From: an uncultured Flavobacteriales bacterium
GTDB lineage: Bacteria; Bacteroidota; Bacteroidia; Flavobacteriales; TMED113
Assembly (NCBI GenBank): GCA_964435285.1
Contig: CAYSYA010000002.1
Coordinates: forward strand, 129,135-193,134
Direction: 5' to 3'
DNA length: 64,000 bases
Shown: one piece after another, positions 2,362 through 58,944 of the stretch
Position numbering within the stretch: the first letter of the stretch is position 1
How the letters are laid out: the number at the start of each line of letters is the position of its first letter
The notes under the pieces: generated by a model
Databases searched by the model: none
Told to the model about the DNA's origin: nothing
The model's input: only the letters and a program-made list of their open reading frames with translations
Translations under genes and position numbers: made by a program

Positions 2362-2949
2362 ATGTGTAAATTTATATTATTTTTAATATTTCCATTAATT
2401 ACTTTATCTCAATATTTAAATTACGATTATTCAGTTACATTTGGTAATCATGTTATAGCGATTAATGAAATTAATTATGATTTTCAAGAGGGTGATATTT
2501 TAGGTTGTTTTTTTGTTAACGTTAATGGACAATTGCAGTGCTGTGGTTCAACAATTTATAACAATGAAAAAGTTACTTACATTTCTGCATGGCCTGATGA
2601 TTTTTTAACTGATTATCAAGAAGGTTTTATAGATGGAGATGAATTGATAATTGGTATGTATTTATGCGATAATTATGACTATATGTCTTCATCTTTCAAT
2701 TCTTTAAATTCTGATTTTTCAGTAATTCACTCTGAAGTTTTTTATGTTGCAAATGGAATAAGTCAAATTAATATTGATTTGTTATCTTCTCCAGATTGTA
2801 ACATTTCATTACAAGAAAAAAATATTAATAGAAAAATGACAGGATTTGTTGATATTTTAGGTCAGTTAACAGATAGGGGTAGGGCTAAAAATTTATATTT
2901 TATTTTATATGATGATGGTAGTGTTGAAAAAAAGTTTATTAATAGATAA
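2362..2949 (+). CDS. Secreted hypothetical protein with short CTD-like tail
   Basis: Signal-peptide-like N terminus (LIFPLITLS-Q); acidic Cys-containing core; C-terminal VDILG...YDDGSVEKK tail shared with two other ORFs in the window. Confidence 0.75.
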   Translation: MCKFILFLIFPLITLSQYLNYDYSVTFGNHVIAINEINYDFQEGDILGCFFVNVNGQLQCCGSTIYNNEKVTYISAWPDDFLTDYQEGFIDGDELIIGMYLCDNYDYMSSSFNSLNSDFSVIHSEVFYVANGISQINIDLLSSPDCNISLQEKNINRKMTGFVDILGQLTDRGRAKNLYFILYDDGSVEKKFINR

Positions 2950-14059: not shown

Positions 14060-15328
14060 ATGAAAAACATTCTTGTTATAGGTACCGGTAGATCATCAAG
14101 TGTTTTGATTGAATATTTATTAAATTACTCTCAATCAAACAATTATTTTGTTACCGTATTAGATCAATTTGAAAATGATTTTTTAAGACAATTTCAAACT
14201 TTCTCTAATTTTAAAAGTCTAATTTTTGATATTCATAATGAAAAATTAAGACACAAAGAAGTAAAAAAATCTGAATTAATTATCTCAATGTTACCCGCAA
14301 GATTTCATACCTTAATTGCTAAGGATTGTTTGTTTTACAAAAAAAATCTTATTACCGCTTCTTACGTTTCTGAAGAGATGAATTCTTTTAATAATGATGC
14401 TATTAAACAAGGTATATTAATGCTAAATGAAATTGGTTTAGATCCTGGAATTGATCATTTATCTGCTATGAGTATTATTGATTCATTAAAAAGTAAAAAT
14501 TATAATATAATTTCATTTAAATCATTTTGTGGTGGATTAATAGCACCTGAGTCATGTGATAATCCATGGGGATACAAATTTACTTGGAATCCTAGAAATG
14601 TTGTTTTAGCCGGATGTGATGGTGCTAAATATTTAAAAAATGGAAATATCAAAGAAATACAATACGATCAAGTCTTTAAAAATTTAGAAACAGTAACAAT
14701 TCCTAATTTTGGAGATTTTGAATCTTATCCAAATAGAAATTCTTTGCATTATATAGAAAAATATAATTTAGAGGGTATTCAAACTTTAGTTAGAGGAACT
14801 ATGAGAAAAAAAGGTTTTTCTTCTGCATGGGACTTTCTAGTGGAGAATGACTTAACCAATTATGAAGAATCTGAAAAAATGTTTTCCAAAAATAATTTTG
14901 TAAAAAAATTAAATAAAATTGACGATAAATTTATTTTAGAAAAAATAAACTATTTAGACATCAACCAATCAGATTTTTTAAAAGAAAATTCTAATGGTAA
15001 AAATTTACAAAACATTTTAGAAAAAAAATGGAAACTAAAAGATAATGATAAAGATATGATTGTAATGCAGCATAAATTTGAATTTGAATCTGATATGAAC
15101 AAGAAGAGACTCTTGAGCTCAATGGTAGTCATTGGTACTGACAATATCAGAACTGCAATGGCAAAAACTGTTGGTTTGCCGATATTTTTTGCTGCTAAGT
15201 TAATTTTAGAGCGTAAAACTTCAATGAAAGGAGTTAGAATTCCTATTTATAAAGAGCTCTATATTCCTATACTGAAATCTTTGGAAGAAGAAGGTATTAA
15301 TTTTATAGAAACAATTGAGGAAATTTAA
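14060..15328 (+). CDS. Saccharopine dehydrogenase (saccharopine reductase / Lys9-like)
   Basis: Rossmann GTGRSS, NEIGLDPGIDHL, SFCGGL, KFTWNPRNVV, YPNRNS, AMAKTVG. Confidence 0.88.
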   Translation: MKNILVIGTGRSSSVLIEYLLNYSQSNNYFVTVLDQFENDFLRQFQTFSNFKSLIFDIHNEKLRHKEVKKSELIISMLPARFHTLIAKDCLFYKKNLITASYVSEEMNSFNNDAIKQGILMLNEIGLDPGIDHLSAMSIIDSLKSKNYNIISFKSFCGGLIAPESCDNPWGYKFTWNPRNVVLAGCDGAKYLKNGNIKEIQYDQVFKNLETVTIPNFGDFESYPNRNSLHYIEKYNLEGIQTLVRGTMRKKGFSSAWDFLVENDLTNYEESEKMFSKNNFVKKLNKIDDKFILEKINYLDINQSDFLKENSNGKNLQNILEKKWKLKDNDKDMIVMQHKFEFESDMNKKRLLSSMVVIGTDNIRTAMAKTVGLPIFFAAKLILERKTSMKGVRIPIYKELYIPILKSLEEEGINFIETIEEI

Positions 15329-15333
15329 GTTAT

Positions 15334-17451
15334 TTAGTTTGTATTAGGCAAAAAAGAATAATCTCTAGCATATTCCATCATTTGTGTCTCAAAATCATCA
15401 GGATATTCTATTTTAACATCAATTATCTCATTATCTTCAATTACTAAACTATACTTAGGATTAATAAACCCACCATAAGGAGCACTATTAAACTTTTTAG
15501 ATCTATTCAATACTTCTTCGTGAATCTTTCTATCAACTTGAACTCCATAATTTTCAACTAATTTTTTTCCAGCTTCAAAATCTCCTTCAGATGTGATTCT
15601 TTGAATTTCTCTCAACAATTGACCAAAAATATTTTGTAATTCTTTGTAATCATTTATTATAAAAAAAGTTTTTCCATCTTTAGTTTTCTTTTCAATTACA
15701 TTATTTTGTTGACCTTTTTTATAAGCCCATGCTGCTACTAGCTGTCTATTCCTCATGTGGTCTTGTTCAATATTATCTCCTAGTTCTATTCTTCTCAATT
15801 GAAGCATTAAACCATTTCTGATATATGAATCATAATGAGCTTTACCGCACTCCATAGATTCCATTAAACCAATTTCAATGAGTTTGTTATTCATCATGTA
15901 GTACAAACCAACTAAATCAGCTCTTGCTTCTTCAAGTGTTGATTTATAGTTTTTTAAGGTTTCTTTAGGTGTTCCAACACCTTCATTTATTTTTCCAGAT
16001 GCGTGACCGACTACTTCATGAAGTAATGTTCCTAATTTACTTGCTTTATTACCATATTTTTTTGCTCTTTCCATTTCTTCATCAGTATAACAAAATTCTT
16101 GCAAAAAACCACCTCCTGAGGCAGCTTCGCTATAAGCAGAAATAATATTACCCAAGCTTACTGATTTTGATCCTTTTTCAGTTCTAATCCAATTATTATT
16201 TGGTAAGTTAACTCCAATTGGGGTTGAAGGAGATGCATCTCCAGATTCCATAGCTACTGAAACTACTTTGTAACTTACCCCAACTACATTTTCTTTTTTA
16301 TGTTCATCCATAATACTCGAGTTATCTTCAAACCACTGAACATATTCATTAATTACCTCTGTTGTTTTAGATGCTTCCAAATCTTTAATTTGAACAATTG
16401 ATTCATAAGCTCCTTTTCTTCCAGCAGCATCGCCGTAAACTTCTACAAAACCATTGATCCAATCAATGTCAGTTTGATTATTAACCCATTGTACGCAATA
16501 CTCATCCCATTTGTAGATATCTCCTGTTTTGTAATATTCTATTAAAAGATCAAACGATTTTTTTTGATCTTCATTTTCAGCTACAGATTTAGCTTTCTCA
16601 ATCCAAAAGATCATTTTGTTTAAAGCTTCTCCATACATTCCATCAACTTTATATGTTTTCTCAAAAACTTTACCATTTTCTTTGACTAATTGAGAATTTA
16701 GTCCATATTCAGGTGCTCTTTCTTCAAATTCTTTTTGATAAAATAAACTAACATCAATCTCTGAAACATTGGGACCATAATAATTATTAGCAGATTCTAG
16801 AATAATATCCACACCCTCATCACGATTAACTCTTTTGAGGTCTGTTTTGTCATCAAAAATTATATTACTAACAAATTGAAATAATTCAGATTTAGTTTCT
16901 CCATTATCTAATGGAAAAGAATAATCATCAGATGAGTTTGTGTTTGAAATTAAGTTGTTAAGAAATTCAGAGGAAAAACCAGGTTGTAATTTTGCGCTGG
17001 AGTAGTGATGATGAATTCCTCCAGAAAACCAAAAACGTTTTACATATATCATAAATTCTTTGAATTCTTTGGAATTTCTATTACCATCATAATTAGCAAC
17101 TATTGTCTCTAAAGTTCTCCTAATTTTTAAATTATGTCTGTAATTTTGGTCAAAAATTATATCTCTACCACTCAAAGATGCTTGAGATAGATAATAAATT
17201 AATTTTTTTTGTCTTAAATCAAGTTCTTCAAATCCTGGAACTCTGTATCTTATCATTTTTAGATCAGCAAATTGTTCTGTTTGATATATAAATTCATCTT
17301 TATCAATAGCATTGGAGGTATTTTGTTTTGGAAATAATATATATTTTCCGTCATTAAGCATAAGAAAAATAACTCCAAAAATTGTTAAAAAAATAATTCC
17401 TTTTAAAATATTTGTTTTTATATTATTTGTTTTATCAGTTGATTGCTCCAT
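15334..17451 (-). CDS. Dipeptidyl-peptidase III (peptidase M49), N-terminally membrane anchored
   Basis: HEVVGH zinc motif, EEARADL, GVNLPNNNWIR, IEQDHMRNR; hydrophobic anchor near the N terminus. Confidence 0.92.
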   Translation of the reverse strand: MEQSTDKTNNIKTNILKGIIFLTIFGVIFLMLNDGKYILFPKQNTSNAIDKDEFIYQTEQFADLKMIRYRVPGFEELDLRQKKLIYYLSQASLSGRDIIFDQNYRHNLKIRRTLETIVANYDGNRNSKEFKEFMIYVKRFWFSGGIHHHYSSAKLQPGFSSEFLNNLISNTNSSDDYSFPLDNGETKSELFQFVSNIIFDDKTDLKRVNRDEGVDIILESANNYYGPNVSEIDVSLFYQKEFEERAPEYGLNSQLVKENGKVFEKTYKVDGMYGEALNKMIFWIEKAKSVAENEDQKKSFDLLIEYYKTGDIYKWDEYCVQWVNNQTDIDWINGFVEVYGDAAGRKGAYESIVQIKDLEASKTTEVINEYVQWFEDNSSIMDEHKKENVVGVSYKVVSVAMESGDASPSTPIGVNLPNNNWIRTEKGSKSVSLGNIISAYSEAASGGGFLQEFCYTDEEMERAKKYGNKASKLGTLLHEVVGHASGKINEGVGTPKETLKNYKSTLEEARADLVGLYYMMNNKLIEIGLMESMECGKAHYDSYIRNGLMLQLRRIELGDNIEQDHMRNRQLVAAWAYKKGQQNNVIEKKTKDGKTFFIINDYKELQNIFGQLLREIQRITSEGDFEAGKKLVENYGVQVDRKIHEEVLNRSKKFNSAPYGGFINPKYSLVIEDNEIIDVKIEYPDDFETQMMEYARDYSFLPNTN

Positions 17452-18568
17452 TTTTTTCTTTTTTATTTGTAATTAAATTAACTTTTCTATCCTTTAAATA
17501 ATTAATTATATAGTCATAATTTATTTTATTTTTTCCAATAATTTCAAGAGGAATAATTCCTTTTTCATTAAAATTTTTTTCTATTATTATATTTGCACAA
17601 GCTGTACAAGTGTAACCTGTTGTTCTAGACATAGAAGATAAATTCAAACTAGTATCATATTCATCAAATAAGTCAATTGTATAAATATTTTTTGAATCAT
17701 GAATTTCAATTTTCATTACAGTAAACTCTAAGTCATTTTCTTCTAGAAACCAGTCTTTTTTAAGAATTTCAGTAGTAATGTCTATTGGTTTTATTTTTTT
17801 ACCATTTATATTAATTTCTTCATTATTAAAAAAGCCACCTTCTTTCAAAGTAAGAATTTTTTTTGCATGACCTTTATATCTCAGTGTTTTTTCTTTCATA
17901 TTCGGTATATGATTCATCGTAAATAAAAGAGTTCGAAGTCCATCTGTATTAAATGCTTCTAAATCACCTATTTTTTCAAAATTTAATATTTCTATTTCTG
18001 TTAATGGATCTTTTGTTACAATTTTATAATTTTCATATAGCCTTGCTGGTCTTGTATATTCTTCAATCACATCAATTGGAGAGAATGGTGCCTTATATTC
18101 GAACGGAGGTTTTTTAATGATTGGAAGTCCACCAACATAACAGGCGTAGTAAGATAAGTTATATATTGAATTATAGTAACCTAATATTAAATTACTTAAT
18201 CCAGGTGCAACTCCAGCATCAACAATTGCTGTAATTTCTTTTTTCTTGGCTAGTTCAGATAATTCTAATGCATCTTCAGGAAAAAAAGATATATCCACAA
18301 CATTTTTTCCTTCCTCAATTATAGTTTGAAGTGTTTTGAAGCCCATAAACCCAGGAACACAACTAATAATTAGATCGAATTTATTAATTAATTTTCTTAA
18401 ATCTGTTAAATTAGAAAGATCCATTTTAACGGTGTTAATATTACATCCTTTTACTTTATTTAAATTATTTTCAGAAATATCTGCTACAGTTACACTGTTT
18501 TTATTAGCTAAGTCTAAGCAAATTGTTCTTCCAACACGACCACAACCCAGGACTAGAATATTTTTCAT
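17435..18568 (-). CDS. Saccharopine dehydrogenase-family oxidoreductase, lysine 6-dehydrogenase-like
   Basis: GCGRVG, DAGVAPGLSN, YVGGLP, YKAPFSPIDVIEEY, EAFNTDGLRTL, SMSRTTG. Confidence 0.8.
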   Translation of the reverse strand: MKNILVLGCGRVGRTICLDLANKNSVTVADISENNLNKVKGCNINTVKMDLSNLTDLRKLINKFDLIISCVPGFMGFKTLQTIIEEGKNVVDISFFPEDALELSELAKKKEITAIVDAGVAPGLSNLILGYYNSIYNLSYYACYVGGLPIIKKPPFEYKAPFSPIDVIEEYTRPARLYENYKIVTKDPLTEIEILNFEKIGDLEAFNTDGLRTLLFTMNHIPNMKEKTLRYKGHAKKILTLKEGGFFNNEEININGKKIKPIDITTEILKKDWFLEENDLEFTVMKIEIHDSKNIYTIDLFDEYDTSLNLSSMSRTTGYTCTACANIIIEKNFNEKGIIPLEIIGKNKINYDYIINYLKDRKVNLITNKKEKNGAIN

Positions 18569-19147: not shown

Positions 19148-19155
19148 TATATTTG
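19148..19155 (+). promoter_or_regulatory. -7 promoter element (TATATTTG) for the lysyl-oxidase gene
   Basis: Exact TAnnTTTG match 17 nt before ATG 19173. Confidence 0.55.
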
Positions 19156-19172
19156 TATAAAATCATCCAGTC

Positions 19173-22100
19173 ATGTTTATCAAAAAAATACTACTATTTC
19201 TCTTTTTTAGCTTATATATTTCATCTCAAAATAATGATGAAATAACTAATGCAATTCAAATATTTTGTGGTGATAATATAACATCTTCTACAGTCAATAA
19301 CAATTCAGATCAAGAATATTTGACATCTGTTGGTTTAAATGAATGTGGGACGACAGTGAATGAATCGTCAGGAGTTTGGTACATGATTTATGGTGATGGT
19401 CAAGAAATGGAATTAAGTATGTGTGAATCTTCTTATGATACAAAATTACATGTATTTAAAGATGATGGATTTAACTTAACGTGTGTAACTGGAAATGATG
19501 ACTCTGATTGCGAAAATTATTTACATTCAAAAGTCACTTTTTCATCTGAAGAAAATATAGTTTATTATGTATATGTTAGTGGATGGGGATCTTATGAAGG
19601 TAATTTCAATCTAAATCTTTCATGTTCATTTTTGGTAAATGGGTGTATGGATGAAGAAGCATGTAACTATGACCCTTTAGCCACTGATGATAATGATTCT
19701 TGTACTTATCCAAATGAATGTGATAATTGTGATGATGAATTATTTTGTGTTGGTTGTACTGACGTTTCTGCTATTAACTTTGAAACAGATAATGTTATTG
19801 AAGATGGATCTTGTGAATATTCGACAGTTTGTGCTGAAAACCAAGATTTAGTTTTTCTTTCACTTGTTTTCGGAAATTGGACTAGTGAAATTACATGGGA
19901 TATACAAAACGAAAATGGAGAAATAATTGCTAATAGTCCTCCACTGAATTCTTGGTATCAAGACTATGAGACTTATGGTCAATATCTATGTTTAAATGTT
20001 AATGAAACTTACTCTTTCAACTCATATGACACTTACGGGGATGGGTGGAATGGCGGTCTTTATACAATTAGCCAGTGTGATCTAGCTGTTGTTTTAGCCA
20101 ATAATAACGGAGAAGTTCCTCCAGGTTACGGAATAACTGAAGAATTCATGATGACTTCAGTTGATTGTAATTCATACGGTTGCACCAACCCTGATGCTTG
20201 TAATTATGATGCTACTGCTTTAATAGATTATGGTTGTGTTTTTTCTGATGAAATTATTGATTGCGATGGGAATTGTTACAATGATTTAAATCAAAATGGT
20301 ATATGTGACGAGAATGATATTTTTGGCTGTATGGATGACAGTGTTTCTAATTATAATCCTGAGGCAACTTTTGATAATGGTACTTGTTTATATGATGTTC
20401 AGTGCTCAAATACAGAAATTCAAATAGATGTTTTACTATCTACTGACAATTACCCCTGGGAAACTTCATTTATTTTAAATGATAATGGGGGAGTCGTTTG
20501 GGCTAATGAAGATGATGTTTTTTCAAGTGTTTATTCTGATTATTTATTTCAGTATTGTCTTCCTGTAGAGGGTTGCTATATTTTTACCGTTTATGATAGT
20601 TATGGAGATGGAATTTTTGACTCAGGAGGTCTACAAGTTTTCTATGAAAATGATTTAGTTTTAGAAAATCCTGATTTTTCTAATGAAGCATCTATAACAA
20701 TGAATTGCCCGCCAGGATACGATTGTAATACTGCCATTGAGGTGGAGTTAGGGGCATATCAAACATTATCTGACGATTTTTGGTACGTTTTTTCACCCAC
20801 TCAAAATGGACAGTATGAAATTAATACTTGTCAATCTGAATGTAATACTATTATTTATGTTTATGACTATTGTACAGGATTGTTACCAACTGAATCAAAT
20901 GATGCAACAATATATTATAACGATGATGAATGCGGCTTACAATCTCAAGTAAATCCTTTGTTTGCTGAAGGTGAATCTTATTACATAAGAATAAATGGAG
21001 ATTGTTCTGAGATTGATTGGGAAATCTCTTATGTTGGTCCTGTTGAAGGATGTATGGATCCAGCAGCTTGTAATTTTAACCCAATTGCTGAAGTCGATGA
21101 TGGTAATTGTTTATACCCTGGAGATCCTGATTGCACAAGTGGTCCAGACTTAGCAGTTTTGCCATTTGAAGATTCAATGTATTTAGAGGTTTATGAAAAT
21201 AATGATGGTTGCGCTATAGACGAAGGGTGTTTGAATGGTTATGGTACAAGATATCTTGTTAGATTTACCACATGGATTAAAAATATCGGTGATGAAGATT
21301 ATTTTATTGGTTCTGTGAATGATAATGAAGAAACTAATCAATTTGAATGGGATGAATGTCACAATCATTGGCATTATAAAGGATATGCAGAATACGTATT
21401 ATTTGATACTGAAGGACAATTAATCCCAGTTGGATTTAAAAATGGTTTTTGTGTAATGGATTTAGAATGTAGCGATGGAGGAACTGCTCAATATGGTTGT
21501 AGTATAATGGGTATTTCAGCAGGATGTGGAGATATTTATGGTGCGGGTTTATCTTGTCAATGGATTGATATAACTACTGTTCCAGATGGTGATTACACTA
21601 TGGTTGTAAGAACAAATTGGGATCAAGATCCTGATGCGCTAGGGAATGTTGAACTTACTTATGAAAATAACTGGATGCAAACATGTATAAGGGTAATTAC
21701 TTTAGAAGATGGTTCAAAAAATTATGTTCTTTCTACTGATTTAGATAATGATGGAATTGATAATATTAATGATCCAGATATTGATGGAGACGGTATACTG
21801 AATGGTGATGATGATGATATTGATGGAAATGGAATTCTAAATGATATTGATGATAATCCTTTTGGTTTGAGTGATTGTCCTTCATATACAGATTGTAACG
21901 GAGAAGAATTTGGTAACGCTCAATTAGATTGCAATGGTGTTTGTGGAGGGGAGGCTACAACAGGAGATTTGAATTTTGATGGTTTTATTGATGTTAATGA
22001 TGGACAAGAATACATTAATCAGATTATAAATAATGATATAACTCCAACAAATTGTACTGATTTAGACTCAGATGGTGAAATTACTGTTTCTGATATAGGT

Positions 22101-22871
22101 TTACTTGTAAATTGTATAAATAACTTTAGTACCATCACAAGAGATAACCAATCAGAACCTTGTCAATATGGTTTAGAAGTCACTAATCCAAATGATACTG
22201 TCTCTTTTGATATTTATGATTGGAATTTAGAAGAGGCTTATGTTGATATAAGTATTCAAAATCCAAACAATGAAGTATTAGGTTATCAATTTAAATTAGG
22301 TAATGAAGGAGTTATAATAACTGATGTTGAAAATTTAATTTCTGAGAATGATTATCCTATTACACCATCTTTTTCTGTTTATGACAATATGATTTTAGGT
22401 GTTTCATTACAAGATAGCTTAATTCAAAAAAATTATGATCCTGTTCCACTTTGTAGAGTATATTATTCATTACCTTTGGGGGTAAATATTGATGGTGATA
22501 ATTTTATATGTATTGAAGAAATAATCGATGTTGTTAATCAAGATTATGAAAATGTTATTTCTGTAAATAACACTGATGAATGTGAGCCATTCAATCAGTT
22601 TAATATTAACGAATTTGAAGGAATAACTAGTTTTGTTCTTTATCCTAATCCAACTTCAGATATTTTATATTTCAATATTTCCTTTGAAGAGAAAAAAGAA
22701 TTTGTTCTGTCTATATATGATTTAGTTGGTAATTTAATTTCGACTAAAAGTTATAATGCTAAGGATATTTCACAAGAGCTAGATTTTACATCACTTTCAA
22801 TGGGAATATATAACTTGACTGTTGACTATGAAAATGGTTTTATTAATAAAAAAATAGTTATTAAGAAATAG
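19173..22871 (+). CDS. T9SS-secreted multidomain protein with lysyl oxidase domain, Cys-rich repeats, TSP3-like and dockerin-like repeats and type A CTD
   Basis: Signal peptide; LOX motifs WDECHNHWHY, GFKNGFC, GCGDIY, CQWIDIT; five GC(T/M)x repeats; CTD LYPNPTSD...IYDLVG...GIY...KKIVI. Confidence 0.88.
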   Translation: MFIKKILLFLFFSLYISSQNNDEITNAIQIFCGDNITSSTVNNNSDQEYLTSVGLNECGTTVNESSGVWYMIYGDGQEMELSMCESSYDTKLHVFKDDGFNLTCVTGNDDSDCENYLHSKVTFSSEENIVYYVYVSGWGSYEGNFNLNLSCSFLVNGCMDEEACNYDPLATDDNDSCTYPNECDNCDDELFCVGCTDVSAINFETDNVIEDGSCEYSTVCAENQDLVFLSLVFGNWTSEITWDIQNENGEIIANSPPLNSWYQDYETYGQYLCLNVNETYSFNSYDTYGDGWNGGLYTISQCDLAVVLANNNGEVPPGYGITEEFMMTSVDCNSYGCTNPDACNYDATALIDYGCVFSDEIIDCDGNCYNDLNQNGICDENDIFGCMDDSVSNYNPEATFDNGTCLYDVQCSNTEIQIDVLLSTDNYPWETSFILNDNGGVVWANEDDVFSSVYSDYLFQYCLPVEGCYIFTVYDSYGDGIFDSGGLQVFYENDLVLENPDFSNEASITMNCPPGYDCNTAIEVELGAYQTLSDDFWYVFSPTQNGQYEINTCQSECNTIIYVYDYCTGLLPTESNDATIYYNDDECGLQSQVNPLFAEGESYYIRINGDCSEIDWEISYVGPVEGCMDPAACNFNPIAEVDDGNCLYPGDPDCTSGPDLAVLPFEDSMYLEVYENNDGCAIDEGCLNGYGTRYLVRFTTWIKNIGDEDYFIGSVNDNEETNQFEWDECHNHWHYKGYAEYVLFDTEGQLIPVGFKNGFCVMDLECSDGGTAQYGCSIMGISAGCGDIYGAGLSCQWIDITTVPDGDYTMVVRTNWDQDPDALGNVELTYENNWMQTCIRVITLEDGSKNYVLSTDLDNDGIDNINDPDIDGDGILNGDDDDIDGNGILNDIDDNPFGLSDCPSYTDCNGEEFGNAQLDCNGVCGGEATTGDLNFDGFIDVNDGQEYINQIINNDITPTNCTDLDSDGEITVSDIGLLVNCINNFSTITRDNQSEPCQYGLEVTNPNDTVSFDIYDWNLEEAYVDISIQNPNNEVLGYQFKLGNEGVIITDVENLISENDYPITPSFSVYDNMILGVSLQDSLIQKNYDPVPLCRVYYSLPLGVNIDGDNFICIEEIIDVVNQDYENVISVNNTDECEPFNQFNINEFEGITSFVLYPNPTSDILYFNISFEEKKEFVLSIYDLVGNLISTKSYNAKDISQELDFTSLSMGIYNLTVDYENGFINKKIVIKK

Positions 22872-24120
22872 GTTTTTCTATTTTCTCAGTAATGTATTTT
22901 CCAGAAAATAATTTTTCTTTGACCTCAGTAAATGCCTTAACAGTTTTATTAACATCATCATCTGTATGAACTGCTGTTGGAATTAACCTCAACATAATTT
23001 TTCCTTTAGGTATTACTGGATACGTAACAATTGAACAAAATATTCCATGATTTTCTCTTAAATCAAAAGTTAAATTTGTTGATTCAGTAACTCCACCTTC
23101 AAGCCATACAGGAGTAACACAACTTTGTGTTTTTCCTAAGTCAAACCCCTCTTTTCTTAATCCATTTTGTAACAAGTTTGTTATGCGCCAAAGATTATTT
23201 TTTAATTCAGGTTTTGTTTTTATCATCTCTAATCTTTTAATTGCACCAATAACTAAGGGCATAGGAAGCGATTTTGCGAAAATTTGAGATCTTGTTGTAT
23301 ATTTTAAGTAATCAATTACAGTTTTTTTAGAGCTAATGAAGGCACCTATACTTGAAAAACTTTTTGCAAAAGTTCCAAAGTAAATATCAATTTCACTTTG
23401 AACTCCAAAATGTTCACCAGTTCCTCTTCCATTTTTTCCCATAGTTCCAATTCCATGTGCATCATCAACAAAAAGTCTAAATGAATATTTTTCTTTTAGT
23501 TTACAAATTTTATCTAATATTCCTAAGTCTCCTGCCATTCCAAATACACCTTCAGTTATTAACAATATTGAGCCCTTTGTTTTCTCCACTACATTTTCAG
23601 CTCTTTTTAGATTTTTTTCCAAACTTTCAATGTCATTATGCAAATATTTAAATGTGGTTCCATTTAGTTTATGTAACCGTATTCCATCTAAAATACAAGC
23701 ATGTGACTCTTCGTCATAAACAATTACATCTCTTCTGTCAACTAATGCATCAACAGCAGAATGCATACCTTGATATCCAAAATTTAACAATATCGTAGAT
23801 TCTTTCTGAACGAAATCAGATAAGTTATTTTCTAATTCTTCATGATATTTTGTTTCACCAGACATCATTCTTGAACCCATAGGAGTTCCTAAACCCCATT
23901 CTTTTGCAGCTTTTGCATCTATTTTTCTTATTTCAGGATGGTTTGAAAGTCCGAGATAATTATTTATACTCCATGTTATAACCTCTTTCCCTCGAAAAAA
24001 CATTCTACTAGAAATTTCTCCTTCAAGTTTAGGATAAGTGAAATAACCATGAGCTTCTTTTGCGTGTTTTCCCAATGGAGATATCTCCATATTTTTTTCA
24101 ATTTTATCAAATAAATCCAT
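22861..24120 (-). CDS. PLP-dependent alpha-oxoamine synthase family (SPT / cysteate-fatty acyltransferase-like)
   Basis: SINNYLGL, GSRMMSG, DEESHACILDG, EGVFGMAG, VDDAHG, GTFAKS (PLP Lys). Confidence 0.85.
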   Translation of the reverse strand: MDLFDKIEKNMEISPLGKHAKEAHGYFTYPKLEGEISSRMFFRGKEVITWSINNYLGLSNHPEIRKIDAKAAKEWGLGTPMGSRMMSGETKYHEELENNLSDFVQKESTILLNFGYQGMHSAVDALVDRRDVIVYDEESHACILDGIRLHKLNGTTFKYLHNDIESLEKNLKRAENVVEKTKGSILLITEGVFGMAGDLGILDKICKLKEKYSFRLFVDDAHGIGTMGKNGRGTGEHFGVQSEIDIYFGTFAKSFSSIGAFISSKKTVIDYLKYTTRSQIFAKSLPMPLVIGAIKRLEMIKTKPELKNNLWRITNLLQNGLRKEGFDLGKTQSCVTPVWLEGGVTESTNLTFDLRENHGIFCSIVTYPVIPKGKIMLRLIPTAVHTDDDVNKTVKAFTEVKEKLFSGKYITEKIEKPIS

Positions 24121-25368: not shown

Positions 25369-26610
25369 ATGAAAATCAAAAATTCTTCATTATTCAAGAA
25401 AAAAATTCTCGTTGGTATTACTGGCGGTATTTCAGCATATAAATCTATTTTTCTAGTTCGTTTACTAAAACAGTGTGGTGCCATTGTTAAGGTTGTATTA
25501 ACTCCATCTGCTCATAATTTCGTTTCTCCTTTAGTGCTATCAGTTTTGTCAAAAAACAAGGTTCATACTAATTTCTATAATGAAAAAAATATATGGAATA
25601 ATCACGTAGAACTTGGTATTTGGGCTGATATTATTATTGTTGCACCAACAACTGCTAATACTATCTCTAAAATATCTCAAGGTGCATGCGACAATCTTCT
25701 ATTGGCCGTAATTTTATCAGCAAGATGTCCTGTTTTTATTGCTCCTGCAATGGATCATGATATGTATCTAAACAAAATCACCCAGAAAAATATAAGTATA
25801 CTTAAGAAAAATAATTATAATTTAATTGATGTTGATTCTGGAAGCCTTGCTAGTGGATTAAGTGGGGAGGGTAGACTCAAAGAACCTGAAAAAATTATTT
25901 CAATTTTAGAATCTTTTTGTTCTAATCAAAAACCCCTTTCTGGGCTAAATTGCTTAGTTACAGCCGGACCTACCTTTGAAAAAATTGACCCAGTTAGATA
26001 TATTGGAAACTTTTCATCCGGAAAAATGGGATGTTGTATCGCAAATGAACTACAAAAATTAGGTGCTAATGTTAATCTAATAATTGGTCCTATTTCTGAG
26101 AAAGTTGATGAAAATATGACTGTTAACAGAGTTGTTTCTTCAAAAGAAATGTATGATTTATCTTTAAAAAAATTTAAAAATCAAGACATCGTCATTTTCT
26201 CCGCTGCTGTTTCAGACTTTACACCACAAAAAAATTATAAGAAAAAAATTAAGAAAGCGGATGTACTCAATATTTCTTTTAAGAAAACAAATGATATTTT
26301 AAAGAAATTAGGTACTATAAAAACGAAGCAAGTTTTGATTGGATTTGCATTGGAGACCAATCAAGAATTAAAAAACGCTAAACAGAAGTTAAAAGATAAA
26401 AATTTAGATGCAATTATTTTAAATTCATTAAATGACAAAGGCGCAGGTTTTGGTTTTGACACTAACAAAATTACAATTATTGACAAAGACTTAAATCAAA
26501 AAAAATATCCTTTAATGACAAAAAAAGAAGCTTCTAAAATTATTGTTAAAAAAGCAACAAATATTTTTTTTAGTCGTTTAAATATTAATAAAGAAATTAA
26601 AAAGTGTTAG
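25369..26610 (+). CDS. coaBC: Phosphopantothenoylcysteine decarboxylase / ligase
   Basis: GITGGISAYK, APTTANT, PAMDHDM, TAGPTFE.IDPVRYIGNFSSGKMG, GFALET. Confidence 0.96.
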   Translation: MKIKNSSLFKKKILVGITGGISAYKSIFLVRLLKQCGAIVKVVLTPSAHNFVSPLVLSVLSKNKVHTNFYNEKNIWNNHVELGIWADIIIVAPTTANTISKISQGACDNLLLAVILSARCPVFIAPAMDHDMYLNKITQKNISILKKNNYNLIDVDSGSLASGLSGEGRLKEPEKIISILESFCSNQKPLSGLNCLVTAGPTFEKIDPVRYIGNFSSGKMGCCIANELQKLGANVNLIIGPISEKVDENMTVNRVVSSKEMYDLSLKKFKNQDIVIFSAAVSDFTPQKNYKKKIKKADVLNISFKKTNDILKKLGTIKTKQVLIGFALETNQELKNAKQKLKDKNLDAIILNSLNDKGAGFGFDTNKITIIDKDLNQKKYPLMTKKEASKIIVKKATNIFFSRLNINKEIKKC

Positions 26611-27509
26611 TGTTTAAAAATTCATTTTTACTCTTTTTTTTAATAAATACTATAATTTTCTCTCAAGAAATAAATTGTAGAGTTTCATTAAATTATTCAT
26701 CTATTCCTAGTGCTAACAAGGAAATGTTTAATTCAATGAGACAGAGTATTAATGAATTTATGAATACAACTAAATGGACCAATGATATTTTTTCTAATGA
26801 GGAACGTATTGATTGTACAATATTGATTAGAATTAATCAACAAATTTCTACTGACGAATTTACTGGTACTATTTCTGTGCAGTCATCTCGACCTATTTTT
26901 AAAAGTACTTATAATTCACCTGTAATTAATTTAGTGGATGATCAATTTAGGTTTAAATATGTTGAATTTGAACCTTTAGAATTTAATGAAAATACCCATC
27001 TTTCGAATTTAACATCTGTTTTAGCATATTATGCTTATATAATTATTGGTTTAGATTATGATAGTTTTTCATTAAATGGAGGAGATAAATATTTTATAAA
27101 GGCGCAAAAAATTGTAAATAATGCACAAAACGATAATAATGCATCAGGATGGAAGTCTTTTGAAGGTTCAAAAAATAGGTATTGGTTAGTTGAAAATTTA
27201 TTAAATCCTGATTTCGAGAATATGAGAAATTCTTTTTATAAATATCATAGAGAAGGAATGGATAATTTTACTGAAAAACCAGACATGGTCAGAGAAACTA
27301 TTGCTGATGCTTTAATTAAATTATTAGATGTTTACAACCAACGACCCAAAAGTTATTTTGTTCAATTATTTTTTGACTCAAAAACCGATGAAATTGTTAA
27401 CATATTTTCTCAGGGAACTTTAATGCAAGCAAATCAGTTAGTCAATGTTTTAACCAGAATATCACCAAAAAATTCTGATAAATGGCAAAAAATTTTAATT
27501 GGTAATTAA
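26604..27509 (+). CDS. porD: DUF4835 family protein (T9SS component PorD)
   Basis: GTG start; QEINCRV, QSSRPIF.STY, NLTSVLAYYAYIIIG.DYDSF, YHREGMD; between coaBC and recN. Confidence 0.8.
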   Translation: MLVFKNSFLLFFLINTIIFSQEINCRVSLNYSSIPSANKEMFNSMRQSINEFMNTTKWTNDIFSNEERIDCTILIRINQQISTDEFTGTISVQSSRPIFKSTYNSPVINLVDDQFRFKYVEFEPLEFNENTHLSNLTSVLAYYAYIIIGLDYDSFSLNGGDKYFIKAQKIVNNAQNDNNASGWKSFEGSKNRYWLVENLLNPDFENMRNSFYKYHREGMDNFTEKPDMVRETIADALIKLLDVYNQRPKSYFVQLFFDSKTDEIVNIFSQGTLMQANQLVNVLTRISPKNSDKWQKILIGN

Positions 27510-45858: not shown

Positions 45859-48171
45859 ATGAAGAGTTTTATTTTTTTATCATTTTTTTACTCATTTTTT
45901 TTATTTTCTCAAAACCTACCAAGTCAGTACTATTTTTCTGAGGATGGAAATAGATTAATAAGAGGAGGATTGGATTTAGGTGGTTTTTATAATCAATCAG
46001 AAATAAAAACCATTTACTTATACTTTGATCAACCAAATTTTTGGGACATTCTACACAATAATTACTGTGATAAAATTAATATTCCCGCAACTTTGATTTA
46101 TGATGGACAAACATATGAAAATGTTGGTGTAAGATTTAAAGGACAAACTTCATATGCAAATACAAATGGTTCTCAAAATGGTGGTGGTCCTGGAGGAGGA
46201 GGTCCTGGAGGTAATAATGTTGATACAGATAAAAAGTCATTTAATATTGAGCTTGATTGGCAAACAAATCAAAATATTAACGGTTATGAAACATTAAACT
46301 TAAATAATTGCTACCAAGATCCTAGTTTTTTAAGAGAATTTATTTTTTCAAAATTATCTAGAAATTATATTCCATCTGTTCAAGTAAACTTCCTAAAATT
46401 AATGATTAACGATGAGGACTGGGGTATTTATCCAAACATTCAACAATTAGATAAAAAACATGCTGGGGAGTGGTTTTTTGATGATGAGTGCACTAGATGG
46501 AGAGCTGAAAACCCTAATAGTGAGGCTCCTGGTTGTGGGGATTCTTTTACAGGGGGAGGTCCTGGGGGAGGAGGTCCTGGAGGAGGAGGCCCTGGAGGAG
46601 GGGGTCCAAATTTTGGAGCAGGCACATCTTCTCTAAATTTTCTTGGAATTGATACTTCTTACTACTTAGAGCATTATAATTTAAAAAAGTCATACAAAAA
46701 TGATCCTTGGCAAGATTTAGTAAATGCTTGTATAGCTATTGAAAATGTTGAAAATTATGAAGACCAGTATAATGATATTAACGAACATTTTGATTTAGAT
46801 GCGGCTTTATGGCATTTAGCTGTCGAAATTATATTTTCAGATGATGACAGTTATATAAACAAAGGAGGAATGGATTATTATGTTTATTTCGATAAATTTA
46901 ATAACAGGATATTACCAATTGAATATGATGGAAATACAGTTTTTGGTAATATTAATTGGAGTCCATTTTATAATGAAAATAACTCCGATTTTGCTCTTTT
47001 AAATAAATTGTTAGCTATACCAGAATTTAGACAAAGGTATTTAGCTCACTTTAGAACTATTTTAAATCAATGTTTTGAGGAAAATTATATTAATAATTTA
47101 ATTGATTATTATGCTGAATTCATTAATCAAAGTGTTTATGATGATCCTAAAAAGATATATTCTTATGTTAATTTTCTAAATGAAGTAGAAGAATTAAAAG
47201 AATATTTTCAAGAAAGAAAATCTTATTTATTATCAAATGATGAGGTCAATCAGGAATCGGTAGAATTTGAAAGTGTGGTTTACTCGGTTAATGGTGTTAA
47301 TTTTTCTCAACCAAGTTCTTTAGATGAAACTTTAGTTTCAGTAATTTTAGATTCTCCAGATTTAGTAGATCAAGTAAATTTATATTACGGTTCTGGTTTT
47401 ACAGGTCATTTTGAAAAAGTGCAAATGGAAAATAATTTGAATTATTATTTTTACAATATTCCTGCTCATGACCCTGGTCAATATGTTAGATTCTACATAG
47501 AAATAATTGATAAAAATGGTGTTAGGAAATATAATCCCGAAGGCGCTGAACATGATGTATATATATATCAAGTAAAAATGAACCAAGATTTGTTTAGTGA
47601 TATTGTTATTAATGAGATTATGGCTTCTAATGATTTTACTGCTGTTGATGAATTTGGAGAATTTGATGATTGGATTGAGATTTATAATAAAGGAAATGAG
47701 TCAATAAATTTGTCAGGTTATTTTCTATCTGATGATCTTAATAATTTAACAAAATATACTTTTCCAGACGTTATTTTAGACCCCGATCAATATTTCATTG
47801 TTTGGGCGGATGATGATGAAGAAGATCAAGGAGATTATAATCATGCTACATTTAAATTATCTGCCTCTGGAGAATCAGTATATTTATCTGATGAAAATCT
47901 AAATTTAATTGATAATTGTGTGTTTGGTGAGCAACAAACAGACCAAGGTTTTGCACGTGTACCTAACGGATTTGGAGATTTTGTTATTCAAGCTCCTTCA
48001 TTTAATTATAATAATGATTTAATATCATCAACTTTGGACGGCTCTAATAATCAAAAAAAACTTATAAAAGTTATTGATATTTTAGGTAAAGAATTAACTA
48101 AGAATATTGATGGAATTCAAATTGAAATTTTTAATGATAATACTGCTGTAAAAAAGTTTAAATTAAGATAA
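45859..48171 (+). CDS. Secreted CotH kinase with GPGGG insertions, lamin-tail domain and short CTD-like tail
   Basis: Signal peptide; VGVRFKGQTS, KKSFNI, LNLNN, FLRE; LTD VINEIMASN...DWIEIYN...LSGYFLSDD; tail LIKVIDILGKE. Confidence 0.88.
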   Translation: MKSFIFLSFFYSFFLFSQNLPSQYYFSEDGNRLIRGGLDLGGFYNQSEIKTIYLYFDQPNFWDILHNNYCDKINIPATLIYDGQTYENVGVRFKGQTSYANTNGSQNGGGPGGGGPGGNNVDTDKKSFNIELDWQTNQNINGYETLNLNNCYQDPSFLREFIFSKLSRNYIPSVQVNFLKLMINDEDWGIYPNIQQLDKKHAGEWFFDDECTRWRAENPNSEAPGCGDSFTGGGPGGGGPGGGGPGGGGPNFGAGTSSLNFLGIDTSYYLEHYNLKKSYKNDPWQDLVNACIAIENVENYEDQYNDINEHFDLDAALWHLAVEIIFSDDDSYINKGGMDYYVYFDKFNNRILPIEYDGNTVFGNINWSPFYNENNSDFALLNKLLAIPEFRQRYLAHFRTILNQCFEENYINNLIDYYAEFINQSVYDDPKKIYSYVNFLNEVEELKEYFQERKSYLLSNDEVNQESVEFESVVYSVNGVNFSQPSSLDETLVSVILDSPDLVDQVNLYYGSGFTGHFEKVQMENNLNYYFYNIPAHDPGQYVRFYIEIIDKNGVRKYNPEGAEHDVYIYQVKMNQDLFSDIVINEIMASNDFTAVDEFGEFDDWIEIYNKGNESINLSGYFLSDDLNNLTKYTFPDVILDPDQYFIVWADDDEEDQGDYNHATFKLSASGESVYLSDENLNLIDNCVFGEQQTDQGFARVPNGFGDFVIQAPSFNYNNDLISSTLDGSNNQKKLIKVIDILGKELTKNIDGIQIEIFNDNTAVKKFKLR
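46180..46212 (+). repeat. 15-bp tandem repeat encoding (GGGP)/GPGGG, block 1
   Basis: ggtggtggtcctggaggaggaggtcctggaggt. Confidence 0.85.
46552..46608 (+). repeat. 15-bp tandem repeat encoding GPGGG x3 plus a final GP, block 2
   Basis: gggggaggt cctgggggaggaggt cctggaggaggaggc cctggaggagggggt cca; locally very GC-rich in an AT-rich genome. Confidence 0.9.
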
Positions 48172-56740: not shown

Positions 56741-56748
56741 TATCTTTG
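56741..56748 (+). promoter_or_regulatory. -7 promoter element (TATCTTTG)
   Basis: Exact TAnnTTTG match that overlaps the track's TTG start, favouring ATG at 56773. Confidence 0.5.
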
Positions 56749-56772
56749 TTTGAACGAATCTCTTTTGTCTCT

Positions 56773-58944
56773 ATGAAAAAAATTATATTTCTATTAACAT
56801 ATCCTTTTATTTTATTTTCTCAAGTTAACTTTAGTGAAGATATTTCATCAATTATATATAATAATTGTACTGAATGCCATAGGCCGGGACAATCAGGTCC
56901 AATGCCATTTACTAATTATTTAGAGGTAGCTGCTTTTGGAAACATGATTAATTATGTAACTGCTATTGATTACATGCCTCCTTGGCATGCTGATACAGAA
57001 TATTCTTCTTTTCTTGGAGAAAGAGGTTTAACAGATGATGAAAAAAATTTAATTAACGAATGGGTTACTAACGGAATGCCTCAAGGTGATCCTTTACTTG
57101 AAGCACAGATTCCAAATTTCCCAGAGGGTTCTGCAATTGGTACACCTGATGCTGTTTTCACAATGGAGGAAGAATATTTGATTGAAGGAAATAATCAAGA
57201 TGATTATAGAGTTTTTGTTTTTGAAACAAATTTTCCTGAAGATAAATATTTAAAATCTATTGAGATTATTCCTGGTAATTATGCTGCTGTTCATCATGTT
57301 TTAATCAATATTGATGATGGTGCATGCGCGGCAATTGATGCTACTACTCCTGAATATGGTTATGAGTGTGAAAGTGGTTTTTGTACAGGTGAAATTCCTC
57401 AGATATCAGCTGGATATACTCCGGGAATGGTTCCCCCAGTTTGGAATAATGATGTTGGGATGTTACTTCCTGCAGGTGCAGATATATCTATTCAAATGCA
57501 TTATGCCCCAAGTCCTATAGACCAATATGATCAATCTACAGTTAATTTATTTTTTAAAGAACAACCTGTTTTAAGAGAAATACAAGTAGAAACAATTGTT
57601 GATACTCAATTATTTATTCCAGCCAATGAATTATATGAACACTATGTTTCTTTTGAAATAGAGGAAGATATTAGTTTAATTAGTATTCTACCTCACATGC
57701 ATTTAATTGGTAAGTCATGGCTTGTTTATGCAGAAAATAATGGAGATACAATTCCAATTATAAGTATTCCAGAATGGGATTTTAACTGGCAAAGTTTTTA
57801 TCAACCTGAATATATGTTAAAATTACCTCAGGGATACACTCTTCATGCTTATGCTACTTATGATAATACTGCTAATAATCCACTAAACCCTAATTCACCA
57901 CCTCAAAATATGTATTGGTGCGATTATACAACTTGTGAAATGTTTTTTCTTCCATTTGCCTATGTTGAGTATCAAGAAGGAGATGAAAATATATACCTAG
58001 GAAACAGCGAAGATTTAGGATGTACTGATTTAAATGCTTGCAATTATAATCCAAATGCAATAATTGATGATGGTAGTTGTGGAATATCAGATGATTGTGG
58101 AGAATGTTTTGTTCCATGTTGTTATAATTTTGAAACTGAAACATGTGATCAAACAGTAAGTCAACAAGACTGTGAATATTTTTGGGCTGATTATAGTATA
58201 ATTTCTGATCCAGAACAAAATATATTTTGGAATTTGAGTTGTAATTCAGGTTGTACAGATCCTTTAGCTTGTAACTATGATTCAACAATTTTACCTGGTG
58301 GTTTTGACGATGGTTCATGTGTTTTTGTTGATGGTATATGCGATACATGTGAAAATGGTGTTGTAATTGATAATGATGCTGATAATGATGGAATCTGCAA
58401 TGGTGATGAATTAGAAGGCTGTACAGACCCTCTAGCTTGTAATTACAATGAATTTGTAACAAATGATGATGGAAGTTGTGAATATGCTCCAGAGTTTTAT
58501 GACTGTGAAGGTAACTGTTTACAAGACTTGGATGAAGATGGAATTTGTGATGAATGTAATAGTTTTGAAAATATGGTTGTTGATTGTGAATGTGAATTTT
58601 TAGATCCGGCTACCTACACTGTATTTTTTACAAATGTCATTGAAAGTGATTGTATTTTAATTGAAGATTGTTATTGTGAATGTATTAGTGATTTAGATGA
58701 AGATGATATTTGTGATGAAAATGACAATTGCCCTGATGAGTATAATCCAAATCAAGAAGATTCAAACGATGATGGAATAGGTGATGCGTGTGACCAAACT
58801 AGTTTGAATGAAAATATCAGTAATAGAAAATTAATTAAAGTTGTTGATATTCTTGGAAGAGAAGTTAGGGAATTAAATAAATATACTCTTTTATTTTATG
58901 TTTATGATAACGGAGAAATTATTCCAAATTACATCATCAAATAA
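56773..58944 (+). CDS. Secreted CxxCH + copper type II (PHM/DBH-like) monooxygenase with Cys-rich repeats and short CTD-like tail
   Basis: Start moved to ATG 56773 (MKKIIFLL signal peptide); CTECH; VHHVL, QMHY, PHMH, CEM copper ligands; three GCTD repeats; TSP3-like DxDxDG motifs. Confidence 0.85.
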   Translation: MKKIIFLLTYPFILFSQVNFSEDISSIIYNNCTECHRPGQSGPMPFTNYLEVAAFGNMINYVTAIDYMPPWHADTEYSSFLGERGLTDDEKNLINEWVTNGMPQGDPLLEAQIPNFPEGSAIGTPDAVFTMEEEYLIEGNNQDDYRVFVFETNFPEDKYLKSIEIIPGNYAAVHHVLINIDDGACAAIDATTPEYGYECESGFCTGEIPQISAGYTPGMVPPVWNNDVGMLLPAGADISIQMHYAPSPIDQYDQSTVNLFFKEQPVLREIQVETIVDTQLFIPANELYEHYVSFEIEEDISLISILPHMHLIGKSWLVYAENNGDTIPIISIPEWDFNWQSFYQPEYMLKLPQGYTLHAYATYDNTANNPLNPNSPPQNMYWCDYTTCEMFFLPFAYVEYQEGDENIYLGNSEDLGCTDLNACNYNPNAIIDDGSCGISDDCGECFVPCCYNFETETCDQTVSQQDCEYFWADYSIISDPEQNIFWNLSCNSGCTDPLACNYDSTILPGGFDDGSCVFVDGICDTCENGVVIDNDADNDGICNGDELEGCTDPLACNYNEFVTNDDGSCEYAPEFYDCEGNCLQDLDEDGICDECNSFENMVVDCECEFLDPATYTVFFTNVIESDCILIEDCYCECISDLDEDDICDENDNCPDEYNPNQEDSNDDGIGDACDQTSLNENISNRKLIKVVDILGREVRELNKYTLLFYVYDNGEIIPNYIIK

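Follow-up and report, generated by a model that had tools for sequence, protein, structure and literature searches.

Lysyl oxidase (LOX) is best known as the cross-linker of animal collagen and elastin. Its presence in Bacteroidetes was reported in the survey of Grau-Bove et al. (2015), in which most prokaryotic LOX proteins looked single-domain. The only prokaryotic LOX with measured activity in the literature that we found is HTU-LOX of Haloterrigena turkmenica, a PF01186 protein whose amine oxidase activity is sensitive to beta-aminopropionitrile and whose relaxed specificity extends to many small amines, leading its authors to propose a role in nitrogen availability (PMC6452851); prokaryotic members of the family can therefore be active. 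Here we describe a multidomain LOX protein encoded within a 64-kb stretch of DNA from an uncultured Flavobacteriales bacterium (contig CAYSYA010000002.1; the whole of the analysed stretch is referred to as the window, and all coordinates are positions within it). The gene spans 19173..22871 (+) and encodes a predicted secreted protein of 1232 amino acids (aa), with 59 Cys residues, 10.8% Asp and 10.4% Asn. An earlier note, made from the sequence alone, had described positions 21141-21696 as a bacterial LOX exported by type IX secretion (T9SS) and equipped with complete copper and lysine tyrosylquinone (LTQ) machinery; these positions comprise 185 open codons in frame 1, within the open reading frame (ORF) 19173-22871 (+). 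Sequence and structural comparisons identify the central domain as a member of the LOX family, with a match far beyond chance, and we consider it probable (roughly 0.78) that the protein is secreted and catalytically competent as a Cu/LTQ amine oxidase, which would generate aldehyde, ammonia and H2O2 outside the cell, with a polymer-bound substrate being favoured.

The LOX catalytic domain (aa 656-845; 21138..21707, +) was delimited by its Pfam match, its match to human LOXL2 (PDB entry 5ZE3) and its predicted fold. The Pfam Lysyl_oxidase family (PF01186) matched aa 690-838 with an E-value of 2e-28 and 99.9 bits, relative to a gathering cut-off of 20.4. A phmmer search against the PDB retrieved LOXL2 as the sole relative (E 2.9e-19; next match E 0.11), and a profile constructed from 60 family members matched 5ZE3 over the whole domain at E 2.2e-42. 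An AlphaFold2 model of aa 651-849, based on 22 homologues, had a predicted local distance difference test score (pLDDT) of 87 and a predicted template modelling score (pTM) of 0.81. Its best Foldseek match was also 5ZE3 (E 2.8e-14, template modelling score (TM) 0.77, root-mean-square deviation 2.8 Å over 199 columns, 32% identity), the second-best match having an E-value of 2.6e-3. The family membership proposed in the earlier note is thus supported by the hidden Markov model, the PDB sequence match and the predicted fold, the model matching 5ZE3 and not a fold unlike PF01186. The motifs it had listed are likewise where it placed them: FEWDECHNHWHY constitutes aa 724-735 (21342-21377), the codon at 21438-21440 specifies Lys (K756) and that at 21537-21539 specifies Tyr (Y789), with GFKNGFC, GCGDIYG and CQWIDIT all being present in the frame-1 translation of 21141-21696.

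Alignment with LOXL2, whose residue numbers differ by 317 from those of the 5ZE3 chain (checked on the disulfides and ligands given in the structure paper, PMC5899467), placed the predicted Cu(II) ligands H730-N-H732-W-H734 (21360..21374, +) opposite H626, H628 and H630. The predicted LTQ lysine, K756 (21438..21440, +), aligned with K653, and the predicted LTQ tyrosine, Y789 (21537..21539, +), with Y689. To assess residue conservation, 90 LOX domains from 80 related Bacteroidota genomic loci were aligned; each of these five residues was invariant (90/90), so that the correspondence with animal LOX claimed for the copper-binding His triad and the LTQ pair extends across the homologues. Eight Cys residues (C680, C686, C729, C760, C766, C776, C785 and C795) aligned with LOXL2 C573, C579, C625, C657, C663, C673, C685 and C695, whereby four of the five disulfides of the LOXL2 catalytic domain (C573-C625, C579-C695, C657-C673 and C663-C685) are kept. 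C766 is retained in 81 of the 90 domains and the other seven are invariant; the nine invariant Cys residues of the alignment also include two that are clade-specific, C654 and C838. The LOXL2 Ca2+ site, formed by D549, L550, E722, D724, N727 and N728, corresponds to D659, L660, E827, T829, N832 and N833, five of the six positions being kept (D659, L660, E827, N832 and N833). The two proteins (5ZE3; PMC5899467) therefore have in common PF01186, a predicted beta-sandwich fold, the HxHxH site, the LTQ Lys and Tyr, most of the disulfides and a PDL ... E-x-x-Y-x-N-N Ca2+ site, whilst the window protein differs in the insertion of about seven residues before the Ca2+-site strand, in its extra C654 and C838, and in having bacterial flanking modules in place of the SRCR domains.

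The ORF is intact and purifying selection is strongest in the LOX domain. Ratios of non-synonymous to synonymous substitution (dN/dS), calculated by the Nei-Gojobori method against three orthologues, were lowest in this domain (0.012, 0.068 and 0.125), compared with 0.10-0.22 for the whole gene and 0.42-0.70 for the C-terminal sorting domain (CTD); dS was about 1, so these values are approximate, though their ranking is clear. We regard the sequence data as strong evidence for retained catalysis, and it appears very improbable that the LOX domain has lost its enzymatic function and become a disulfide-rich structural or binding module of a surface adhesin. That idea draws on the composition of the protein, in which modules characteristic of adhesins (beta-sandwich, Cys-motif, Asp-rich and dockerin-like) dominate, and on the fact that enzymatic activity within this clade is predicted from homology. 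It sits poorly with the invariance of all five catalytic residues in 90 domains and with the LOX domain being the most constrained part of the gene; moreover, a structural role alone would not demand that HxHxH, Lys and Tyr be retained together.

A predicted Sec signal peptide, consisting of MFIKKILLFLFFSLYISS followed by Q and lacking a lipobox Cys, was recognized by inspection at the N-terminus (19173..19226, +), where the succession of MFIKK, a hydrophobic core and SS before the Q resembles a signal peptidase I substrate. Orthologues retain the hydrophobic core, followed by [FY]S and then Q-[EN]-N-D-E, with the Gln at +1 kept; Bacteroidota typically conserve a Gln at this position. A T9SS type A CTD is located at the opposite end (aa 1156-1232; 22638..22868, +) and was detected, at aa 1156-1231, with both PF18962 (E 6e-12, 46.1 bits relative to a cut-off of 27) and TIGR04183 (E 5.9e-9, 35.8 bits relative to 23), and the family profile matched the solved T9SS CTDs 8GLK and 8GLJ at E 5e-8. 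The gene for the T9SS component PorD (26604..27509, +; NF052317 T9SS_PorD, E 9e-113, 376 bits relative to a cut-off of 170) lies 3.7 kb downstream of the LOX gene, and none of the core gldKLMN/sprA genes was seen within the window. Export via Sec and the T9SS is plausible on the basis of these features, and the T9SS export asserted in the earlier note stood, given a type A CTD above curated cut-offs and a PorD gene in the same window. This predicted route distinguishes the protein from LOXL2, which uses the eukaryotic secretory pathway. HTU-LOX is likewise a prokaryotic PF01186 protein with a signal peptide, but it is archaeal and of simple architecture, has an autoinhibitory N-terminal stretch and lacks the T9SS tail and the beta-sandwich and dockerin-like modules. 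The window encodes a second T9SS type A cargo of 825 aa (37882-40359, +), which is very rich in Cys, Asp and Trp and contains a Kazal-like fragment (E 2e-5).

The family to which the window protein belongs is already known, widespread and annotated, some members bearing the NCBI name 'lysyl oxidase family protein', and the protein is an expected member that would be no surprise to specialists; the earlier description of prokaryotic LOX as known from surveys and largely uncharacterized agrees with the literature found. An exhaustive search of 1.84 billion cluster representatives (50% identity clusters) yielded 2952 matches at E <= 1e-3 and 256 at E <= 1e-30, and a genome scan confirmed at least 578 loci, with homologues in at least 578 species genomes. 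The matches listed originated mostly from the Flavobacteriales, Saprospiraceae, Sphingobacteriales and Chitinophagales, and the closest relatives among them were Flavobacteriales genomes of marine origin, either single-cell or metagenome-assembled. A locus in JAYYFR010000029.1, a Bacteroidota metagenome-assembled genome (MAG; XS_MAG9), has an identical LOX-domain sequence, and LOX-domain identities were 75-100% within the window protein's own nine-genome clade and 57-69% across the family loci. A typical family member is about 800 aa in length, with the LOX domain at about 260-465. Amongst 60 such members PF01186 was present in all 60 and Por_Secre_tail in 59. A few contigs with typical Bacteroidota-type LOX genes were also encountered in MAGs binned as Comamonadaceae, Methanobacteriota or Gammaproteobacteria (L043, L045, L064 and L076), for which mis-binning, and not transfer, is the most likely explanation.

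What is added here is a T9SS multidomain architecture that is conserved across the family, together with the sequence evidence for catalysis set out above. The conserved core consists of two beta-sandwiches, a Cys motif, LOX, a dockerin-like module, a beta-domain and the CTD. LOX was present in all 149 of the family representatives against which the window protein was searched segment by segment; the list of the top 150 representatives was almost wholly of the Bacteroidota clade. Upstream of LOX are an X2 CUB-like beta-sandwich (aa 411-512; 20403..20708, +; 104/149 representatives), a PPC_B beta-sandwich (aa 513-625; 20709..21047, +; 122/149), both of which had a pLDDT of 96, and a Cys motif that joins PPC_B to LOX (aa 626-649; 21048..21119, +; 134/149). 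For PPC_B, a word-indexed search had given four fragments as homologues, hence the representatives from the exhaustive search were used instead. Downstream are a Cys-rich linker (aa 901-928; 119/149) and a dockerin-like EF-hand pair (aa 929-990; 120/149), together at 21873..22142 (+), and a conserved domain found in at least 97 of the 149 representatives (aa 991-1150; 22143..22622, +). The T9SS CTD was recovered in 35 of the 149 by single-sequence search and in 59 of the 60 members of about 800 aa by Pfam. Such members (e.g. P0008, P0023, P0029 and P0033) have the same core order as the window protein, namely X beta-sandwich, PPC-like domain, Cys motif, LOX, Cys linker, dockerin-like module, beta-domain and T9SS CTD, but are without its N-terminal addition of about 390 aa and its post-LOX Asp-rich repeat.

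An AlphaFold2 model of aa 411-655 (pLDDT 96.2, pTM 0.85) comprised two beta-sandwiches, for which Foldseek returned the SIDT1/2 ectodomains, the ColG tandem 5IKU (E 1.2e-5) and chains of the CUB proteins TMPRSS6, C1r/C1s and neuropilin. The model thereby places these domains in the CUB and PPC fold classes, an assignment that does not imply collagen binding. PPC_B resembles the ColG collagen-binding domain (1NQJ, 5IKU) in fold class, and the tandem resembles ColG s3a-s3b; the two differ in that identity is 10-16%, TM to target is at most 0.59 (0.59 for 1NQJ over 110 columns, at 16% identity) and the window protein gave no Pfam match to PF04151 (PPC) even at E <= 1. Within the window protein the dockerin-like assignment is weak, Dockerin_1 (PF00404) scoring 19.2 bits (E 0.0014), below the gathering cut-off of 22.9. 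At the family level it is supported by matches in 16 of the 60 members (best E 3e-8) and by a family-profile match (E 3.5e-4) to the CelS dockerin 1DAQ/2MTE. No Pfam or PDB sequence match was obtained for the domain at aa 991-1150; a cohesin-like beta-domain had been guessed for it from the sequence pattern, and was abandoned when the Pfam and PDB sequence searches gave no support.

For the events that would follow synthesis, namely metal loading, LTQ formation, activity, surface attachment or release, and the choice of substrate, we infer the following course. Sec would export the protein by way of its N-terminal signal peptide, and from what is known of the T9SS family the type A CTD would direct passage across the outer membrane before its removal, after which the enzyme would be either anchored to the surface through its C-terminal end or set free. 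In the oxidizing exterior the 59 Cys residues would form disulfides and Cu(II) would bind to H730, H732 and H734, whereupon, by homology with LOXL2, Y789 would be self-oxidized and cross-linked to K756 to yield the LTQ cofactor. The mature enzyme could then convert primary amines to aldehydes with the release of NH3 and H2O2. Its substrate may be lysine epsilon-amino groups on extracellular or surface proteins, which would provide reactive allysine for cross-linking or attachment, as well as ammonium. We consider the chemistry and the export likely; the polymer-bound substrate is put forward far more tentatively, and is favoured because LOX is flanked by the conserved CUB-like and PPC/collagen-binding-domain-like pair and by the dockerin-like module.

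Several observations weigh against this interpretation. The window protein covers only positions 49-191 of the 204 in the PF01186 profile, the fifth LOXL2 disulfide (C732-C746) is without a counterpart, and the position of the Ca2+ ligand D724 is occupied by Thr829. The LTQ precursors are 16.6 Å apart in the LOXL2 crystal, such that cofactor formation needs a conformational change (PMC5899467), and the activity of HTU-LOX was undetectable in its native host (PMC6452851). As to the substrate, the likeness between PPC_B and ColG is generic and no sure guide to the ligand, with SIDT1/2 ectodomains and CUB proteins scoring similarly. Clustering of all ORFs within +/-10 kb across the 80 related loci revealed no conserved operon partner that could point to a substrate, with no family being next to LOX in more than 20 of the 80. 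The literature searched contained no paper on a Bacteroidota or T9SS LOX and no biochemical data for a Bacteroidota member.

The same enzyme and export could instead serve nitrogen scavenging, with a surface deaminase stripping ammonium from dissolved primary amines, such as polyamines, amino sugars and free or peptide lysine, on behalf of a streamlined planktonic cell to which cross-linking would be irrelevant. We regard this as doubtful, yet almost as plausible as action upon polymer-bound lysine. It would suit a low-GC (27.6%) marine Flavobacteriales lineage, represented by open-ocean MAGs and single-cell genomes, that keeps a 3.7-kb gene under purifying selection, and it has a precedent in the relaxed small-amine specificity of HTU-LOX and the nitrogen-availability role proposed for it (PMC6452851). 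A small-molecule oxidase, however, is not obviously in need of conserved tandem beta-sandwich and dockerin-like modules. Genes for peptide and amino-acid catabolism in the surroundings (an M49 peptidase, two M16-like peptidases, histidine ammonia-lyase and two saccharopine-dehydrogenase-family genes) also lend themselves to this explanation, but these neighbours are conserved only among very close relatives and thus carry little functional signal.

The neighbourhood as a whole is of a housekeeping nature, containing, in addition to the two saccharopine-dehydrogenase-family genes and the M49 peptidase gene, those for DUF6580, a KBL-like aminotransferase, BamD, the RNA polymerase omega subunit and PorD, with the two M16-like peptidase genes and that for histidine ammonia-lyase also nearby. 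CoaBC and RecN were assigned in this neighbourhood from the ORF translations alone. The window's own neighbours recur in 7-12 of the 80 loci, chiefly in the closest relatives, the KBL-like aminotransferase having the highest count of 12; because they are kept only in close relatives, the context gives no clue to the substrate. The saccharopine-dehydrogenase-family genes (14060-15328, +, and 17435-18568, -) lie on either side of that for the M49 peptidase, a short way upstream of LOX. Lysine catabolism through the saccharopine pathway yields free allysine, and allysine is also the LOX product; the proximity of these genes is probably a coincidence, since the neighbourhood is kept in 8 of the 80 loci, all of them very close relatives. 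The nearby lysine-catabolism genes were accordingly dropped as functional evidence.

The LOX gene stands alone, between a divergent gene upstream and the convergent aminotransferase gene downstream, and it probably has its own promoter because the upstream gene is divergent. The octamer TATATTTG at 19148..19155 (+), 18 nt before the start codon, matches the TAnnTTTG consensus described for -7 promoter elements of Bacteroidetes. At its 3' end the LOX ORF shares 11 nt (22861-22871) with the 3' end of the KBL-like aminotransferase gene (22861-24120, -), so that no space is left for a shared intergenic terminator. The gene has a GC content of 31%, relative to 27.6% for the window, with a smooth composition profile; recent transfer or contamination was rejected on the grounds of this composition and of orthologues that occupy the same context in related genomes. 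When the window was scanned with Rfam at gathering thresholds, no structured RNA was matched. Further along the window are genes for CotH kinase-family proteins at 40373-42184 (-) and 45859-48171 (+), the second being a fusion with a lamin-tail domain. Directly downstream of the LOX gene, several other Flavobacteriales loci (e.g. L010, 4568-7615) encode a protein of about 1020 aa, which was read as lamin-tail-domain-like from its N-terminal sequence alone.

A number of Flavobacteriales loci (L018, L021, L025, L027, L029, L034, L036, L049 and L050) encode two LOX paralogues of about 840 aa, convergently oriented and approximately 6.5 kb apart, which are about 53-55% identical to the query LOX domain. 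Extracellular amine oxidation is also performed by the unrelated LodA/GoxA quinoprotein oxidases of marine bacteria, which oxidize the lysine epsilon-amine or other amines with release of H2O2. These enzymes are analogous in function but of unrelated fold, and their cofactor is cysteine tryptophylquinone, made with a partner flavoprotein; Pfam and NCBIfam scans of the LOX ORF gave no pointer to this family. By comparison with the lysine-epsilon-oxidase LodA of Marinomonas, H2O2 could be the selected product of the same chemistry, acting as an antagonistic or dispersal factor, although we consider this improbable. Each turnover of an amine oxidase gives H2O2, the enzyme is predicted to be secreted or surface-exposed, and paired paralogues 6.5 kb apart would fit the diversification of a weapon or interaction factor; on the other hand, no immunity, catalase or regulator gene consistently adjoins LOX in the 80 loci, and a highly conserved architecture with low dN/dS is atypical of arms-race effectors.

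The earlier note had also pictured the enzyme as displayed on a long Cys/Ca2+-rich stalk. Modules with Cys motifs and Asp-rich repeats do exist, but LOX sits centrally (aa 656-845) with modules on both sides rather than at the end of a stalk. N-terminal to LOX are about 635 aa of beta-sandwich and Cys-motif modules, whilst Asp-rich repeats, the dockerin-like module and the beta-domain lie between LOX and the T9SS tail, and would act as a spacer if the protein is attached to the surface through its C-terminus. Judging from the motifs alone, these modules may bind Ca2+. The N-terminal extension of about 390 aa is lineage-specific and consists of PPC_A, two Cys motifs, X1 and a linker. PPC-like beta-sandwich A (aa 20-155; 19230..19637, +) has weak self-similarity to PPC_B and was found in 2 of the 149 representatives. 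It is followed by two copies of the Cys motif, recognized by self-comparison (aa 157-179 and 194-216; 19641..19820, +), and by the X1 beta-sandwich (aa 219-335; 19827..20177, +), a paralogue of X2 (phmmer self-match, independent E-value 7.5e-8). On the other side of LOX, repeats of the form D-x-D-x-D-G (aa 846-900; 21708..21872, +) were identified by inspection as a possible Ca2+-binding spacer. They gave no Pfam match and are lineage-specific, given that the nearest cluster, P0028, is the only one of the 149 representatives to have them. Among the matches listed, only the window protein and the eight species-level relatives closest to it (L002-L009) have the extension and the Asp-rich repeat, and the complete proteins of this clade (L001-L009) are about 1220-1234 aa in length.

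The Cys motif has a 22-aa consensus of C-x-D-x2-A-x-N-Y-x-P-x-A-x3-D-G-S-C-x-Y, or in a fuller form G-C-T/M-D-x2-A-C/x-N-Y-N/D-P-x-A-x3-D-G-S-C-x-Y, and matched no Pfam family. It occurs five times in the LOX protein (19641-19709, 19752-19820, 20178-20246, 20325-20396 and 21048-21119), and looks like a disulfide-knot linker used lineage-wide in secreted proteins. Further copies were found in other ORFs of the window, with two in the T9SS cargo encoded at 37882-40359 and three in the 732-aa ORF at 56746-58944 (+), which is probably another secreted modular protein. Neither the latter nor the 195-aa ORF at 2362-2949 (+) had a Pfam or NCBIfam match.

These findings bear on the role of prokaryotic LOX and on whether eukaryotes took their LOX gene from bacteria. 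A streamlined, open-ocean lineage of Flavobacteriales keeps a fully equipped LOX, predicted to be secreted, under strong purifying selection, and a single multidomain T9SS architecture is common to hundreds of aquatic Bacteroidota species, providing experimenters with defined constructs (aa 411-850 or 656-845) and a defined clade. Were the enzyme active at the cell surface, amines in dissolved and particulate organic matter would be converted to aldehydes, ammonium and H2O2, with a bearing on marine nitrogen recycling and particle chemistry. More speculatively, and with no great likelihood in our estimation, the Bacteroidota T9SS LOX proteins may constitute a dedicated surface system for cross-linking or aldehyde tethering, in which the beta-sandwich pair presents proteins to the enzyme, and may perhaps lie near the bacterial source of eukaryotic LOX. 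Such a system would serve matrix formation, particle attachment or prey capture, and would represent the first physiological role for a prokaryotic LOX and a donor candidate for the cross-linker of the animal extracellular matrix.

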